Shown: positions 48,183 to 58,396, counted from the stretch's first letter. The stretch: 64,000 bases of DNA from Coleofasciculus chthonoplastes F2-STO-03 (GCA_040222015.1 JAVJWO010000165.1:1-64000), one strand, 5' to 3'. Notes: generated by a model from the letters alone, not told the origin. Translations and numbers: made by a program.

Positions 48183-48211
48183 TTGACAAATTTGTAGTAT
48201 ATTTGTAGTAT
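48183..48211 (+). promoter_or_regulatory. Sigma70-type promoter of the tRNA array overlapped by tandem ATTTGTAGTAT repeats
   Basis: TTGACA - 17 nt - TAGTAT; 11-bp direct repeat at 48190-48200 and 48201-48211. Confidence 0.8.
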
Positions 48212-48219
48212 ACATTTAA

Positions 48220-48285
48220 GAGCGAAGGGGAAAGAGCCAAACCGCTTGACTCCAGACGCTCATACCGAACCTTGAAAACTGAATA
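48220..48285 (+). promoter_or_regulatory. rrn-type antitermination leader (boxB-like hairpin plus boxA)
   Basis: GAGCG...CGCTC stem then GAACCTTGAAAA (48267-48278), the boxA of cyanobacterial rRNA operons. Confidence 0.65.
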
Positions 48286-48309
48286 TGTAACACATTTTTT
48301 CATCAATGT

Positions 48310-48382
48310 GGGGGCGTAGCTCAATGGCTAGAGCAAAGACCTGTCGAGTCTGAGGTTGCGAGTTCAAGTCTCGTCGCTCCCG
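48310..48382 (+). tRNA. trnD: tRNA-Asp(GTC)
   Basis: Cloverleaf; anticodon loop CTGTCGA; T loop TTCAAGT. Confidence 0.88.
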
Positions 48383-48388
48383 CTATCT

Positions 48389-48462
48389 GGCTCCATCGTC
48401 TAGGTGGACAAGGATCTCTGATTTTCGCTCAGAAGACACGGGTTCAAATCCCGTTGGGGCTA
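48389..48462 (+). tRNA. trnE: tRNA-Glu(TTC)
   Basis: GGCTCCA/TGGGGCT acceptor stem; loop TTTTCGC. Confidence 0.85.
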
Positions 48463-48557
48463 TGACATTGATGAACTAGGTCAAGTTGTCAAGGGGTTGA
48501 AGGGAATACTGACAACTCCTACCTTGACCTTTAAAAGAAGCAGATTATTTGAGGAAG

Positions 48558-48630
48558 GGGAGTATAGCTCAACTGGCAGAGCATACGGCTTTTAACCGTC
48601 TGGTTGCAGGTTCGATTCCTGCTGCTCCCA
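48558..48630 (+). tRNA. trnK: tRNA-Lys(TTT)
   Basis: Cloverleaf; loop CTTTTAA. Confidence 0.9.
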
Positions 48631-48640
48631 CTCAATTTTT

Positions 48641-48713
48641 GGGAGTATAGCTCAGTCGGCAGAGCAGCACCCTCATAAGGTGCCAGTCGCAGGTTCAATC
48701 CTTGCTACTCCTA
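48641..48713 (+). tRNA. tRNA-CAT (elongator Met or Ile2)
   Basis: GCACC CTCATAA GGTGC anticodon arm; paired 1:72. Confidence 0.85.
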
Positions 48714-48720
48714 CTGCTCC

Positions 48721-48792
48721 AGCCTCATCGTCTAGTGGTTAGGACGCTGCCCCCTCAAGGCAGAAAGAGGAGTTCAAGTCTCCTTGGGGCTA
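48721..48792 (+). tRNA. trnE: tRNA-Glu(CTC) with C at position 33
   Basis: CTGCC CCCTCAA GGCAG anticodon arm. Confidence 0.78.
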
Positions 48793-48795
48793 TCT

Positions 48796-48902
48796 GGAGA
48801 GGTGGCTGAATTGGTGAAAGCACTTCCCTGCTAAGGAAGCATGGGGCAACCCATTGCAGCTACTCTTCGAGAACGCTCCGCGAACAAATCCTGTCCTCTC
48901 CG
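48796..48902 (+). pseudogene. trnS: tRNA-Ser(GCT) disrupted in the T arm by a 26-nt repeat
   Basis: GGAGAGG/CCTCTCC acceptor, CTTCC CTGCTAA GGAAG, long variable arm; expected GTTC replaced by 48860-48885. Confidence 0.8.
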
Positions 48903-48907
48903 CTTTG

Positions 48908-48935
48908 TGTAGTATATCGAACCAGACATACTACA
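48908..48935. promoter_or_regulatory. Inverted pair of TGTAGTAT motifs inside the array
   Basis: TGTAGTAT - 12 nt - ATACTACA; same 8-mer as in the array promoter. Confidence 0.55.
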
Positions 48936-48941
48936 TATCCT

Positions 48942-49024
48942 GGGTCGGCTCGCCTATTAGGGTGGGCAACTGTCTGTAAAACAGCCGCTTTCATGCGTTG
49001 CAGGTGCGAATCCTGCCCGACCCA
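48942..49024 (+). tRNA. trnY: tRNA-Tyr(GTA)
   Basis: GGGTCGG/CCGACCC acceptor; loop CTGTAAA; variable arm; T loop TGCGAAT. Confidence 0.82.
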
Positions 49025-49055
49025 TTGAATTTTGGTTTCAAAGTTCAAATCGAAT

Positions 49056-49129
49056 GTAGGGATAGTGTAACGGCAACATCTCGGTCTCCAAAACCGAGGA
49101 TCTGAGTTCAAATCTCAGTCCCTGCGCCA
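49056..49129 (+). tRNA. trnW: tRNA-Trp(CCA), CCA encoded
   Basis: TCGGT CTCCAAA ACCGA anticodon arm. Confidence 0.9.
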
Positions 49130-49140
49130 ATCAAACATTT

Positions 49141-56258: not shown

Positions 56259-56307
56259 CAATTACAGGATCTTGGACTATAATAGTACAAAAATACTAAT
56301 TAAAATT

Positions 56308-56769
56308 ATGCCGATTTATTTCTACAGCACCCGTGAAAAACCCTACGGTTGCTTTTCCAACTTCTCTCGCCATGGTTTTGAGTTAGATGGTTGTTGGTGG
56401 GCAACGAGTGAACATTACTTCCAAGCACAGAAATTTGTCGAGACGGATCGTCCTTGGTTCGACAAAATCCGCGAAGTAAAAACGCCTAAAGACGCTGCCA
56501 AAATGGGCAGAAGTCGGCAACACCCTCTCCGTCACGATTGGGAACAGGTCAAGAATGAAATTATGAAGCGGGGAGTGTTGCAGAAGTTTGAAACTCATGC
56601 TGATATCCGTGAGATACTTTTGGCGACAGGGGATGAGTTGATTGTCGAGAATGCCCCCAGAGATTACTACTGGGGATGCGGTAAAGATGGCAGTGGTAAA
56701 AATAAATTGGGAGAGATTTTAATGGCAGTGCGAGAGATATTGCGTCAACCTCTTACAAATGACAAATGA
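56308..56769 (+). CDS. NADAR (YbiA-like) family hydrolase
   Basis: YGCFSNF, TSEHYFQAQKF, LLATGD, DYYWG, GKNKLGEILM motifs. Confidence 0.93.
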   Translation: MPIYFYSTREKPYGCFSNFSRHGFELDGCWWATSEHYFQAQKFVETDRPWFDKIREVKTPKDAAKMGRSRQHPLRHDWEQVKNEIMKRGVLQKFETHADIREILLATGDELIVENAPRDYYWGCGKDGSGKNKLGEILMAVREILRQPLTNDK

Positions 56770-56829
56770 CAAATGACGAATGACGAATGACAATCTCCAC
56801 CGTTAGCTTTTATTGTGTCCACCCACTTA

Positions 56830-56902
56830 GGGTCTGTAGTTCTAATGGGAGAACGCCTGTTTTGCACACAGGAGGTTGCGGGTTCAACCCCCGCCAGATC
56901 CA
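56830..56902 (+). tRNA. trnA: tRNA-Ala(TGC)
   Basis: G3:U70 pair; CCTGT TTTGCAC ACAGG. Confidence 0.88.
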
Positions 56903-56906
56903 TGAT

Positions 56907-56982
56907 GGTGTCTGAAGCCAAAGCGGTCGCGGCGCTTGTTTGTGGAACAAGTCAATAGCGGGTTCAAGTCCCGTCAGACACC
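56907..56982 (+). tRNA. trnH: tRNA-His(GTG)
   Basis: G-1:C73; CTTGT TTGTGGA ACAAG. Confidence 0.85.
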
Positions 56983-56989
56983 CTTCAAT

Positions 56990-57076
56990 GGAAGATGCCG
57001 CTGAATGGACGGCAAGCGGTCTTGAAAACCGTGGTACGGCAGCGATGCCGTAGGGGTTCGATTCCTCCATCTTCCT
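56990..57076 (+). tRNA. trnS: tRNA-Ser(TGA)
   Basis: GCGGT CTTGAAA ACCGT; long variable arm TACGGCA/TGCCGTA. Confidence 0.82.
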
Positions 57077-57080
57077 TTAT

Positions 57081-57152
57081 CCACCGGAAGCCGAAAAGTG
57101 AGGCGCTGTGCTGATAATGCAGAGGTAGAAGGGGCAGTACCTTCCCGGTGGA
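57081..57152 (+). tRNA. trnI: tRNA-Ile(GAT) with non-canonical T loop
   Basis: CCACCGG/CCGGTGG; loop CTGATAA; T loop GGCAGTA. Confidence 0.75.
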
Positions 57153-57157
57153 TTCAT

Positions 57158-57228
57158 CCCTCTGCCAGTGGATTCTGGCACTGATACTACGAATATCGGA
57201 TGCGGTGGTTCAATTCCATCCAGAGGGG
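57158..57228 (+). tRNA. trnR: tRNA-Arg(ACG) with reduced D arm
   Basis: CCCTCTG/CAGAGGG; TGATA CTACGAA TATCG. Confidence 0.72.
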
Positions 57229-57231
57229 TTT

Positions 57232-57636
57232 GATCGGGGGTGAGTAGCTGTAATCAAAAAGCTGGAAACATTTACCCATTATTGCCCATGCATTGGGTAG
57301 AGACTTGTCCCGATGGAATGGGTTCGACAAGAGTAAGTAGTCGGACACAAGTTTTGGGAACTGTATAAAGTTTTGTAAGCATTACCGCAACGCTTGTGAC
57401 ATAAAAATTCGTGCTGTTTTACATTTCTTAACACAGAGCCGTTTATTTATGTCCGACTACTTATGTATACTTTTTGGTGTACCTATCCAGCCAAAAACCA
57501 CAGCTAGATAGGTGACTTTATATAGCCGCCAGTTAGGTGGTGTTAGCCTGTGGACTGGTTAAGTGCCGTCACTGCCAGGATGAAGCAGGAAGTAAGTTCC
57601 AATGATGTCCATGCTTTGGATAAGTTTGGGTAAATC
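57232..57636 (+). ncRNA. Unidentified multi-hairpin RNA between tRNAs, interrupted by a MITE
   Basis: Long-range TTTACCCA/TGGGTAAA pairing and at least five local hairpins; no ORF. Confidence 0.45.
57334..57463. mobile_element. 130-bp MITE with TA target duplication
   Basis: TIRs TAAGTAGTCGGACA / TGTCCGACTACTTA. Confidence 0.8.
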
Positions 57637-57644
57637 TTATATAA

Positions 57645-57717
57645 CGGAATGTAGCTCAATTGGCAGAGCAGGTGACTCTTAATCACTGGGTTGCAGGTTC
57701 GATTCCTGTCATTCCCA
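57645..57717 (+). tRNA. trnK: tRNA-Lys(CTT)
   Basis: GGTGA CTCTTAA TCACT; C1:C72 mismatch. Confidence 0.85.
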
Positions 57718-57722
57718 TTTGT

Positions 57723-57747
57723 TCGGGTGTGGCGCAGTTTGGCTAGC
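57723..57747 (+). pseudogene. 5' stub of a tRNA (Pro-like)
   Basis: TCGGGTGTGGCGCAGTTTGGCTAGC ends abruptly in the D stem before AT-rich DNA. Confidence 0.6.
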
Positions 57748-57785
57748 TAATTAATATTATAATAGTTATACTGCGGATAAAACTA

Positions 57786-58019
57786 ATGTCTGTACAAGCC
57801 ATGAAAATACAAGATCTAAAACTAGAACTAATTCAGTGGATTTTATTATTGCAAGATGTTCAACTTTTAAATGAGATCCAGACTATCAAAGAAAATTCAG
57901 CGGAAAATATAGTCCCTACTAAGCCTCGCCAATTTGGTTGTGGCAAAGGTATTTTTAGTTATGTGGCAGATGATTTTGATGCAACACCTCCGGGTTTTGA
58001 AGACTATATGCTACCATGA
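57786..58019 (+). CDS. vapB: Antitoxin (DUF2281/VapB-like)
   Basis: PRQFG..KG...ADDFD..P..FEDY C-terminus; ATGA overlap with the PIN gene. Confidence 0.8.
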   Translation: MSVQAMKIQDLKLELIQWILLLQDVQLLNEIQTIKENSAENIVPTKPRQFGCGKGIFSYVADDFDATPPGFEDYMLP

Positions 58020-58396
58020 ACTATTTAATTGATACTCATATCTTAATTTGGTTTCTTGAAGGGAACACTAACCTTTCTAAGCAGGCACAAGACTTAATCG
58101 GTAATCCTGCTAATTCCATTTATGTCAGTCAAGCGAGTTTGTGGGAAATGACCATTAAGATTAGTATCGGCAAGTTGTCTTTGTCGATTTCATTGTCTGA
58201 GTTAGAAATTTTTCTAATAAATAATCAGTTTCAAATTTTAGACGCTAAGTTTAGTCATTACGAAATATTGCAGCATTTGCCCTTTCATCATCAAGATCCT
58301 TTTGACCGCTTGATTATCGCTCAGGCAAAAGCCGAAGATTATATGATCATCACAAATGATAATCGCTTCAAACTGTACAATGTAAAATTGGTGTAA
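58016..58396 (+). CDS. vapC: VapC PIN-domain toxin
   Basis: YLIDTHILIW, SLWE, HQDPFDRLIIAQA, ITND. Confidence 0.93.
   Translation: MNYLIDTHILIWFLEGNTNLSKQAQDLIGNPANSIYVSQASLWEMTIKISIGKLSLSISLSELEIFLINNQFQILDAKFSHYEILQHLPFHHQDPFDRLIIAQAKAEDYMIITNDNRFKLYNVKLV

Follow-up and report, generated by a model that had tools for sequence, protein, structure and literature searches.

The locus described here occupies positions 48,183 to 58,396 of a 64,000-nucleotide (nt) stretch of the genome of Coleofasciculus chthonoplastes F2-STO-03 (GCA_040222015.1 JAVJWO010000165.1:1-64000, hereafter the window) and consists of two groups of tRNA genes interleaved with protein genes (Table 1). It is almost certainly a split and decaying L-type array of supernumerary tRNAs (L-array), related to the trn operon of Anabaena with its repressor TrcR. 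We are equally confident that a 213-nt segment between the two groups is a genuine, selected and TrcR-linked structured RNA, called the mimic RNA below, that imitates the factor-binding site of 23S ribosomal RNA (rRNA). L-arrays and TrcR are known, and the array of the window is a new, degraded member. As for the mimic RNA, we found no earlier description of it in Rfam 15 or in the openly accessible full-text literature searched. In Rfam 15, no family besides a fragment of the large-subunit (LSU) rRNA covers the segment at any threshold, and term searches of the main text of PMC8421152 gave nothing relevant to an rRNA-mimic RNA.

The sarcin-ricin loop and the L10/L11 stalk base (helices 42-44) together form the site of the ribosome at which translation factors dock and their GTPase activity is stimulated. 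Both are represented in the mimic RNA. The Rfam LSU match spans the complete helices H43/H44, that is the GTPase-associated centre (GAC), and the alignment of 16 homologues revealed a second invariant block, AGUACGAGAGGA, which is the core of the sarcin-ricin loop. Relative to the real 23S rRNA of a related genome (L028), the mimic RNA is identical at 15/15 nt of the sarcin-ricin loop and at 28/31 nt of the GAC, and the 5' strand of H42 (GGAGUGC.AAGA) matches as well. The order of the two elements is reversed, with the sarcin-ricin copy 56 nt upstream of the GAC in the mimic RNA and approximately 1500 nt downstream of it in the real 23S (GAC at 1575-1605 and sarcin-ricin loop at 3113-3127 in L028). 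The mimic RNA is not colinear with 23S, only two segments matching, in reversed order. No other sarcin-ricin core was found in the strain's own assembly, in which the 23S gene is unassembled. In the fold that we propose, a four-way junction is closed by helix P0, and the P4-P5-P6 arm ends in H43/H44.

The structure was proposed from the same sequences as those on which it was tested, which gives it an advantage over the controls in which the pairing was slid by 1-3 columns. In an alignment of 41 sequences, 92.2% of positions are paired over 42 pairs (43-52% when slid), with 18 both-side changes and 0/500 shuffles attaining these values, and in a larger one of 63 non-redundant sequences, 91.7% over 49 pairs (36-55% when slid), with 29 both-side changes and again 0/500. 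Loop sequences are invariant across copies and stems vary. The sarcin-ricin core is invariant in 41/41 sequences of the set collected by BLAST; the value of 63/63 in the larger set is circular, since that set was chosen by exact match to the core. Three positions of the GAC, which we take to correspond to the base triple 1072/(1092-1099) in E. coli numbering, covary, being U,U,A in 61 and C,C,G in 2 of the 63 sequences, and C,C,G is the state found in real cyanobacterial 23S. This is the pattern expected for a tertiary fold that has been kept. Two other candidate pairings were rejected. One, suggested by RNAalifold, joins 5' UACAUAC to GUGUGUA in H44, and loci L033 and L114 have GUGCGUA there with UACAUAC unchanged; the covarying base triple of an rRNA-like fold explains these H44 substitutions. 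The other, a long-range pairing between GUGCGA in the H42-like loop and UUGCAC in the 3' tail, shows one-sided changes that are uncompensated in the alignments.

The mimic RNA is widespread among cyanobacteria. Full-length or near full-length BLAST matches are present in 27/61 relatives, and 37 of 401 genomes sampled across the phylum carry it, all but two of them in the order to which Coleofasciculus belongs, shorter matches being real 23S. At least 121 GTDB species-representative genomes match the exact pattern that joins both blocks of the mimic RNA. Culturable carriers among them include Nostoc carneum NIES-2107, Nostoc linckia NIES-25, Calothrix brevissima NIES-22, Fischerella muscicola PCC 7414 and Nostoc punctiforme NIES-2108. 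Among the 80 titles listed, 76 name cyanobacteria; the remaining four are metagenome-assembled genomes, filed under Acidobacteriota, Actinomycetota or 'uncultured bacterium', in which the cyanobacterial palindrome GCGATCGC is found. Phages were considered as a source of the mimic RNA and discarded, as nothing full-length occurs in INPHARED or IMG/VR: there is no occurrence among the 2.9 million IMG/VR contigs, and INPHARED phages have short matches to the GAC part only, at 17-30% coverage, with no record at 80% of the query. In PLSDB, only 2 plasmids, both cyanobacterial, have a full-length copy; no feature is annotated there, and neither plasmid comes from Anabaena 7120.

The link with TrcR comes from copies located outside arrays. 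The flanks of 80 loci were analysed, a copy being called free-standing if there is no same-strand tRNA within 1.5 kb. By this definition, 21/80 copies lie within tRNA arrays of the same orientation, where an Arg tRNA usually precedes them by 90-130 nt, and 59/80 are free-standing; among 54 loci of closer relatives, embedded copies outnumber free-standing ones by 37 to 17. A tandem TGTAGTAT-N2-TGTATTAT pair, the arrangement of TrcR operators, lies 30-90 nt upstream of the sarcin-ricin core in 43 of the 59 free-standing copies, but in none of the 21 embedded ones and in only 2 of 3616 control windows of the same loci. Given this enrichment, the mimic RNA is predicted to belong to the TrcR regulon independently of the arrays. 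Embedded copies have a different signature, namely an AAGGAGG box after the preceding tRNA (19/21 loci, compared with 0/59 free-standing ones). It lies approximately 15-25 nt past the tRNA and is followed by an NTG codon 4-13 nt downstream (loci L008-L017, L041-L058 and L086-L154). The open reading frames (ORFs) that could start there are 1 to 47 codons long, many of 3, with no consistent peptide, which does not support the idea of a leader peptide; approximately 12 of them end in UAA directly past helix P0. This box could be a translation-sensing leader or a binding site for the 30S subunit.

The genes that follow the mimic RNA belong to several families. A same-strand downstream ORF is found in 60/80 loci, and Pfam was run on 2-3 representatives of each cluster. 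The most frequent product is a conserved protein of 276-281 residues without Pfam domain (31 loci: L059, L062, L064, L065, L081, L083 and 25 more), followed by Tpt1/KptA (6 loci, plus L038), NADAR proteins (5 loci of other genera, besides the window), a 400-residue AAA ATPase (5 loci) and an RNA ligase with a tRNA-binding domain (4 loci). The gene for a poly(ADP-ribose) glycohydrolase (PARG) is found upstream of the mimic RNA in three sister genomes and at L020, and single neighbours include an FtsJ+S4 methyltransferase (L031), a second methyltransferase, HEPN_AbiU2 and DUF4291. There is no ribosomal-protein gene downstream of the mimic RNA in the window or at any neighbour-scanned locus. The 276-281-residue protein has 1217 relatives in the databases; the best 120 of these are 71-95% identical, are unnamed or almost all called 'hypothetical', with one 'DUF4376 domain-containing', and, where an organism is named, come from cyanobacteria. 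In the five loci checked, its gene is followed by a small ThiF/E1-like gene. An AlphaFold2 model built on a 25-sequence alignment has a mean predicted local distance difference test (pLDDT) score of 46.9 and is unusable.

As for the array itself, its first base is the first base of a -35 box, and the promoter carries predicted tandem operators of the TrcR type, the second of which overlaps the -10 box (Table 1). The same arrangement, with tandem TGTAGTAT operators over the -10 box, is described for the Anabaena trn operon in PMC10272220 and PMC8421152. Tandem operator pairs are rare in the genome of F2-STO-03, with only three in 7.7 Mb, namely those of the array, of rtcB and of a site on contig C99. 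The rtcB gene (Pfam RtcB, 5.5e-127) starts 52 nt behind its operator pair at C178:19538, and the exact published motif of the trcR promoter, ATACTACACTTGTATTAC, has a single genomic occurrence, at C211:60892(-), 5' of an ORF of 121 codons. The product of the latter has no Pfam match and owes its trcR-like identity to the promoter motif alone. Thus, rtcB and a trcR candidate are indeed present elsewhere in the genome, where the first-pass annotation had proposed to look for them. A tpt1/kptA gene (contig C72, 14239-14736, +; locus L207) is preceded, approximately 150 nt upstream, by TTGACA and then TGTAGTAT-TGTATAAT, and the same promoter type precedes the mimic RNA together with Tpt1 in six other species. 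The third tandem pair, TGTAGTATTTATGTAGTAT, is found at approximately 11560-11690 (-) of C99 (locus L204). The next ~280 nt contain no ORF of 50 codons or more and fit no Rfam family, the best being RAGATH-12 with 18.5 bits where 75 are needed; this stretch may encode another TrcR-controlled non-coding RNA. Inside the array, an inverted TGTAGTAT pair forms a hairpin (-12.4 kcal/mol, z -3.8) that is kept in G001 and G005, two of three same-genus genomes used for comparison (G001, G002 and G005); an internal operator and a processing site are both possibilities.

The tRNA genes are densely packed: half 1 fits 14 of them, tRNA-like genes included, into 1.3 kb, and half 2 another 5 to 6 into 0.9 kb. 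The count of 14 in the first half, made initially from the sequence alone, is borne out by ARAGORN and Rfam together, and the calls of both programs agree that all are on the + strand. The six tRNAs plus a stub that had been placed at 56830-57717 fared less evenly: ARAGORN calls four and Rfam one, and the sixth and the stub were recognised by eye only. One further tRNA-like gene, beyond the 209-residue protein, had been overlooked. Fifteen of the 52 ARAGORN tRNAs of the genome are in the array (11 + 4), and for 13 of these the same anticodon is present elsewhere; Ala-TGC and Glu-CTC have no second copy in the assembly, which is without rRNA operons. The array tRNAs share only 58-72% identity with those dispersed housekeeping tRNAs that have the same anticodon. 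This supports, by sequence comparison, their being supernumerary genes rather than the constitutive housekeeping set, which would have spoken against the initial proposal, and the L-array reading stands. In passing, the 'Leu' tRNAs of arrays from other genera (L008-L011) are 75-80 nt long and seemingly devoid of a long variable arm, a feature that bacterial tRNA-Leu is expected to carry. At loci L009, L011, L012, L035, L036 and L143, ARAGORN calls a 'tRNA-Pyl' with anticodon CUA directly 5' of the mimic RNA, in the slot occupied by Arg-UCU in other arrays; it looks like a tRNA of the amber-suppressor type.

The two halves derive from one ancestral array, as shown by intact arrays of other genera and by synteny in all three same-genus genomes. 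An intact array of another genus (L008) reads ...Gln, Leu, Pro, Leu, Met, Thr, Thr, Thr, Gly, Gly, Val, Arg-TCT, followed by a gap of ~300 nt that contains the mimic RNA, and then Ala, Ala, Ala, His, Ser, Ser, Arg. In the window, which belongs to a 92.7-kb contig, a ~6.4-kb series of inserted genes separates the two halves, and the array no longer has its Leu/Pro, Gly/Val and Arg block. Both halves are on one contig and in the window's order in G001, G002 and G005, as the first-pass annotation had wished to see checked, the order in these genomes being half 1, Macro(-), the 209-residue protein gene, the membrane protein gene(-), Arg-TCT, the gap element, NADAR, Ala/His/Ser, Lys-CTT and Band7/NfeD. 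G005 is without Macro and keeps Leu, Pro, Leu, Thr and Thr there instead. All three relatives have a microbial-type PARG gene (PF10021, 8.5e-53) between the membrane protein gene and Arg-TCT. The window has lost all of PARG beyond codon seven, together with Arg-TCT and the spacer next to it, and what remains of PARG now abuts the mimic RNA. The junction is a GCGATCGC site. In the relatives, the segment missing from the window has such a site at each end, which suggests that recombination between these palindromes (sites in L078, L079 and L080 for the relatives) produced the deletion. Together with the degenerate tRNAs and the terminal stub, this deletion bears out the partial decay that had been noticed, and the promoter and the supernumerary tRNAs do the same for the relationship with the Anabaena operon.

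Taken as a whole, the explanation towards which we lean slightly is a TrcR-repressed, horizontally acquired and split L-array that provides spare tRNAs, ADP-ribose enzymes and a mimic RNA serving as a decoy. The initial idea of a 'backup-and-decoy kit' for translation fits this evidence. Under translational stress, TrcR would leave the array promoter, and the transcript would be cut by tRNA-processing enzymes, freeing backup tRNAs and the mimic RNA. The latter might be a decoy or sponge whose target normally binds the sarcin-ricin loop together with the stalk base; most likely, this target would be an RNA-damaging enzyme aimed there or, alternatively, a translational GTPase or the stalk proteins. 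Co-regulated RtcB, Tpt1 and RNA ligase would mend damaged RNAs, and Macro, PARG and NADAR proteins would clear by-products derived from nicotinamide adenine dinucleotide (NAD); judging from their established functions, these six families may represent an NAD-dependent heal-and-seal RNA repair pathway with by-product clearance. An RNA-damaging enzyme is favoured as the target because the loop nucleotides that are attacked are invariant, because the neighbours are repair enzymes, and because PMC8421152 itself raises the possibility of a sponge function for array tRNAs, directed against toxin RNases that are induced at the same phase. The decoy mechanism as such remains a tentative proposal, which we would sooner doubt than adopt. 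The anatomy, conservation, structure, operator linkage and gene neighbourhood are established from the sequences, and induction in F2-STO-03, release by processing and decoy activity are deduced. Its fullest wording, an RNA replica of the ribosomal GTPase-associated centre that filamentous cyanobacteria make on demand within the TrcR regulon and that decoys ribotoxic enzymes directed at the sarcin-ricin loop or stalk, or translation GTPases, while spare tRNAs and NAD-dependent repair restore translation, is likewise possible and falls somewhat short of probable.

Several observations weigh against parts of this explanation. The equivalent of A1067, assigned by what we take to be the E. coli numbering, is A in only 56/63 sequences (that of A1095 in 59/63), which fits poorly with selection for contact with EF-G or thiopeptides. 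In the window, the native upstream context of the mimic RNA (Arg-TCT and the AAGGAGG box) has been deleted, and P0 has one mismatch. No TrcR operator can be recognised for half 2 in the window, which leaves the regulation of this half uncertain. The metatranscriptomes of a relative, whose contigs are 90-99% like the window over most of the region, contain 17-18% of the sampled words in each of 8 runs; in the 4 runs compared, depth is roughly flat over tRNAs, protein genes, spacers and the antisense gene, a contig-level measure, possibly affected by DNA carry-over, that carries no information on expression, transcript ends or strand. No HNH endonuclease adjoins the array, the upstream ORFs coding for an S8 peptidase and a 291-residue protein without family match, although an HNH homing endonuclease is placed upstream of L-arrays in 'most species' by PMC8421152. 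Similarly, the vapBC pair at the 3' end is not conserved with the array, being present in two of the four genomes of the genus (window and G005), with a 171-nt internal deletion in the G005 copy. Lastly, free-standing mimic RNAs lie in a 5' untranslated region (UTR), with the next ORF 13-100 nt past P0 and in some cases no room for a terminator, an arrangement that suits a cis-acting leader equally well.

A leader of this type would sense the free pool of, for instance, L11, L10-L7/L12, L6 or a translational GTPase set free by damaged ribosomes and adjust downstream expression accordingly, that of repair enzymes in free-standing loci and that of the distal tRNAs in arrays; we consider it unlikely, albeit the most serious competitor to the decoy. 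Its main argument is that very 5'-UTR position: free-standing RNAs start ~25-35 nt past the operator and promoter and end shortly before a same-strand ORF, and an AGGAG box lies immediately next to the 3' strand of P0 in L122. Unrelated families are found downstream (the 276-residue protein, Tpt1, NADAR, AAA ATPase, RNA ligase and methyltransferases), as is the case with riboswitches and T-boxes, embedded copies mostly have their own AAGGAGG box and nearby NTG codon upstream, and leaders of ribosomal-protein operons that copy an rRNA site are an established precedent. However, we saw no conserved expression platform, neither a terminator nor a conserved anti-Shine-Dalgarno pairing, the distance from RNA to ORF varies from 13 to ~100 nt, and no ribosomal-protein gene is adjacent in the loci examined. 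In arrays, moreover, tRNAs lie 17-120 nt away on both sides, and tRNA processing should free the mimic RNA as a separate molecule. Still less probable, in our view, is a substrate mimic or scaffold for repair and modification enzymes, comparable to the Y RNA of rsr-rtcBA operons, that recruits or activates these enzymes (Tpt1, the ligase, the methyltransferase or the ADP-ribose hydrolases) or is itself modified as a signal, for instance by ADP-ribosylation or by cleavage and re-ligation. Such a role would account for the recurrence of four families linked to NAD or ADP-ribose, namely NADAR (window and 5 loci), Tpt1/KptA (6 and L038), PARG (3 and L020) and Macro (window), and for the RNA ligase with its tRNA-binding domain (4 loci) and the FtsJ+S4 methyltransferase of the rRNA type (L031) that adjoin the mimic RNA. 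The Anabaena TrcR regulon also includes rtcB, a TIGR02452 (PARG-type) protein and an AAA ATPase, according to a table in PMC10272220. Yet no enzyme domain can be recognised in the commonest neighbour, the 276-residue protein (31/60), neither an ADP-ribosyltransferase nor a nuclease is a consistent partner, and the neighbours may simply share a regulon.

The two remaining alternatives deny the mimic RNA or the array any special function. That the locus is an ordinary housekeeping tRNA cluster with unrelated genes, its halves not co-regulated, is very improbable: half 2 admittedly comes without a separate TrcR operator in the window, and the intervening antisense membrane protein has no link with translation, but 13/15 tRNAs have a divergent second copy (58-72% identity), the gene order is that of L-arrays of other genera, and the promoter matches the published TrcR target, which contradicts this alternative for half 1. 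A non-functional, scrambled fragment of a 23S pseudogene hitch-hiking with the array might be invoked on the grounds of the Rfam LSU match and of the visible decay around it. We regard it as the most far-fetched of all, since the rRNA pieces follow each other in the opposite order, at a distance of 56 nt rather than ~1500 nt, are embedded in the non-rRNA helices P0, P1, P3 and P4 with compensatory changes, and have invariant loops and varying stems; in addition, the RNA is kept in at least 121 species, within arrays and alone, and its free-standing copies have their own operator-bearing promoter.

Comparison with known systems sets the array and its mimic RNA in context. Like the trn operon of Anabaena sp. 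PCC 7120 (PMC8421152, PMC10272220), the Coleofasciculus array is a long same-strand series of tRNAs distinct from the housekeeping set, with tandem TGTAGTAT over the -10 box, the same operator at rtcB, the trcR promoter motif in the genome, and genes for RNA-processing proteins embedded in or linked to the array. It differs by its split, by the loss of the Leu/Pro, Gly/Val and Arg block, by the lack of an upstream HNH endonuclease and by the presence of the mimic RNA. Phage tRNA arrays are also clusters of extra tRNAs, the three embedded proteins have PHROG matches and the 209-residue protein occurs in phages; in contrast, the island has no phage structural or replication genes, and in the one phage inspected, phiPsa374, the homologue of the 209-residue protein is not beside tRNAs. 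YrlA (RF02553), the tRNA-like Y RNA of rsr-rtcBA RNA-repair operons that binds Ro/Rsr, resembles the mimic RNA in being a non-coding RNA that imitates a translation RNA inside a repair regulon containing RtcB. It imitates a tRNA, whereas the mimic RNA imitates two rRNA sites, and no Ro gene was seen. In the region, YrlA matches are sub-threshold and fall on tRNAs only (32.5 and 21.4 bits against 69). Leaders of ribosomal-protein mRNAs (L10 and L1/L11 operons) likewise mimic an rRNA site off the ribosome and share the 5'-UTR position with free-standing loci. Unlike them, the mimic RNA copies two distant elements, from domains II and VI, almost base for base, is not beside ribosomal-protein genes in the loci examined, is also found between tRNA genes, and has the operator of a stress repressor. 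Finally, 6S RNA and other decoy RNAs are similar in the proposed logic, an abundant RNA that copies a docking site and titrates its partner, with the difference that the site copied by the mimic RNA is ribosomal and not a promoter.

If the decoy reading is true, the mimic RNA would be the first natural 'ribosome-in-pieces' decoy and would represent a new class of bacterial non-coding RNA. If its function is real, bacteria would imitate a ribosomal factor-binding site with a small RNA, the TrcR response would gain a concrete molecular target, namely a sarcin-ricin loop and stalk base that are damaged or occupied, and the ADP-ribose and NAD enzymes (Macro, PARG, NADAR and Tpt1) would be tied to the repair of rRNA and tRNA. 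The mimic RNA also offers a compact natural construct for studies of L11, stalk and GTPase binding off the ribosome, and it serves as a marker of the TrcR regulon in no fewer than 121 species.

Table 1. Features of the split tRNA array and its surroundings in the window (positions counted from the first nucleotide of the window)
Feature	Position	Strand	Evidence and remarks
Array promoter	48183..48211	+	-35 TTGACA 48183-48188, 17-nt spacer, -10 TAGTAT 48206-48211
Tandem TrcR-type operator octamers TGTAGTAT (predicted from sequence)	48193-48200 and 48204-48211		second overlaps -10 box
Half 1 of array	48310..49618	+	11 ARAGORN tRNAs (Asp-GTC, Glu-TTC, Lys-TTT, Met-CAT, Glu-CTC, Tyr-GTA, Trp-CCA, Phe-GAA, Asn-GTT, Gln-TTG, Thr-CGT) and 3 degenerate tRNA-like genes (Rfam)
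tRNA-like gene	48796-48902	+	Rfam 39.3 bits; 107 nt, Ser-GCU-like, degenerate T arm
Inverted TGTAGTAT pair inside array	48906..48937	+	48908 on +, 48928 on -; hairpin
tRNA-like gene	49383-49456	+	Rfam 33.8 bits
tRNA-like gene	49467-49538	+	Rfam 28.1 bits, slightly below gathering score of 29
Macro-domain protein, 201 residues, antisense	49643..50248	-	Pfam Macro 2e-12, Macro_2 4.5e-5; phrog_2613 8.4e-69
Conserved uncharacterised protein, 209 residues	50627..51256	+	phrog_1491 4.6e-51
tRNA-like gene	51301-51374	+	Rfam tRNA 43.8 bits; no ARAGORN call
Polytopic membrane protein, 1378 residues, antisense, between halves	51652..55788	-	weak DUF2157 7.7e-4
PARG remnant	55982..56030	+	TTGACG box, first 7 codons (ATG 56010), GCGATCGC site 56022-56029
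Mimic RNA, 213 nt, imitating the 23S rRNA factor-binding site	56034..56246	+	Rfam, alignments, pair counts
Closing helix P0	56034-56040 with 56240-56246	+	hand-derived from alignments
Helix P1	56052-56056 with 56227-56231	+	hand-derived from alignments
P2, sarcin-ricin-loop hairpin	56062-56084	+	core AGUACGAGAGGA at 56067-56078
Variable hairpin P3	56086-56104	+	hand-derived from alignments
H42-like arm P4/P5	56106-56123 with 56195-56218	+	hand-derived from alignments
H43/H44, GAC	56134-56189	+	Rfam LSU_rRNA_bacteria 52.4 bits, model 1093-1148
NADAR/YbiA-family protein, 165 residues, directly 3' of mimic RNA	56272..56769	+	Pfam NADAR 1.1e-43, profile 1-163/163
Half 2 of array	56830..57230	+	Ala-TGC, His-GTG, Ser-TGA, tRNA-like gene 57081-57152, possible Arg remnant
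tRNA-like gene	57081-57152	+	Rfam 37 bits
Possible Arg-ACG-like remnant	~57158-57230	+	by eye; no tool call
Inserted dispersed repeat, nested	57231..57644		31 further BLAST matches on >20 other contigs
tRNA-Lys-CTT	57645-57717	+	ARAGORN; Rfam
5' tRNA stub, marking truncated array end	~57725-57750	+	by eye; no tool call
vapBC, VapB-like (77 residues) and PIN VapC (126 residues)	57786..58396	+	ORFs overlap by 4 nt; PIN 3.7e-18

The interleaving of the tRNAs with a Macro protein, a NADAR protein and an uncharacterised protein, reported in the first-pass annotation, is confirmed by Pfam and ORF calls, and all three embedded proteins have strong PHROG matches. The 165-residue protein is, from its sequence, a member of the NADAR/YbiA family with a full-length domain. 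It further matches TIGR02464 (2.3e-48), PDC-M42C (1e-16) and phrog_1017 (9.3e-38), and its closest structure is E. coli YbiA (PDB 2b3w, 2.9e-41), 8bau being more distant (2.5e-11). The Macro protein is present in G001 and G002, and absent from G005. Its nearest solved chain is yeast YMR087W (1njr, E 0.0022), which we take to be the ADP-ribose-1''-phosphate phosphatase of the tRNA-splicing pathway; this similarity serves as a lead only.

The 209-residue protein is linked to the array in the window and in all three same-genus genomes. It has homologues in 727 phage records (tblastn) and 253 in the protein database. An AlphaFold2 model with a pLDDT of 81.7 consists mostly of long helices and has no fold match in the PDB at E<=0.001 (Foldseek), the best being 3kdq, an uncharacterised protein, at 3.8e-3; in the ESM Atlas, the protein belongs to unnamed clusters only, mostly viral. 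The antisense gene that separates the two halves is present as described initially and codes for a protein in whose hydropathy profile 25 partly overlapping stretches delineate ~20 separate hydrophobic segments. This protein has no NCBIfam, PADLOC or PHROGs match and is 88-90% identical, at the same position, in the three same-genus genomes; we treat it as an unrelated insertion.

As for the 3' end of the island, the sequence of the last two ORFs, a PIN toxin gene after a small overlapping antitoxin gene, identifies them as a VapBC type II toxin-antitoxin pair, with matches to TA_VapB (9.8e-8) and VapC (5.3e-5) that are both under the curated cut-offs. The pair is thus where the island had been said to end, but it is not a conserved end: because it occurs only in the window and in G005, while the preceding stub is present in all four genomes, vapBC is an insertion that varies between genomes, located where the array is truncated, and does not belong to the array.

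Of the three structured RNAs that had been announced, for which no coordinates were given, the mimic RNA is conserved, and the other spacers turned out to be repeats. The spacers 50249-50626, 51375-51651 and 55789-56051 are made of short repeats found genome-wide and not of conserved structured RNAs; by BLAST against the genome, the latter two recur 1420 and 273 times. Tandem heptamers of the GACAAAT type and 24-nt direct repeats (GTCCCTAAACCCGCCCCTACAATT-like) are seen at 51375-51651, 55789-56051 and 56745-56800. Within half 1, 48464-48557 forms a modest hairpin (z -1.8). The dispersed repeat nested before tRNA-Lys is not part of the ancestral array; it is absent from G001 and G002, and contigs from RNA libraries of a relative skip 57237-57646. 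A RAGATH-18 match at 57547-57591 is sub-threshold (32.9 against 44.9 bits) and overlaps the most repeated part of the element, approximately 57526-57596. The element may be a small mobile element or a family of small RNAs.

Two neighbouring groups of genes complete the picture. Upstream, at 43184-47198 (+), the window encodes a porin of the OprB family that carries an SLH domain, as well as a subtilase of family S8, with no sign of a link to the array. Directly 3' of the island, on the - strand, lie a Band7/SPFH gene and two NfeD genes (58669-60815). A slipin gene appears among the members of the Anabaena TrcR regulon in the table of PMC10272220, and no TGTAGTAT-type site was found upstream of this Band7/NfeD operon.

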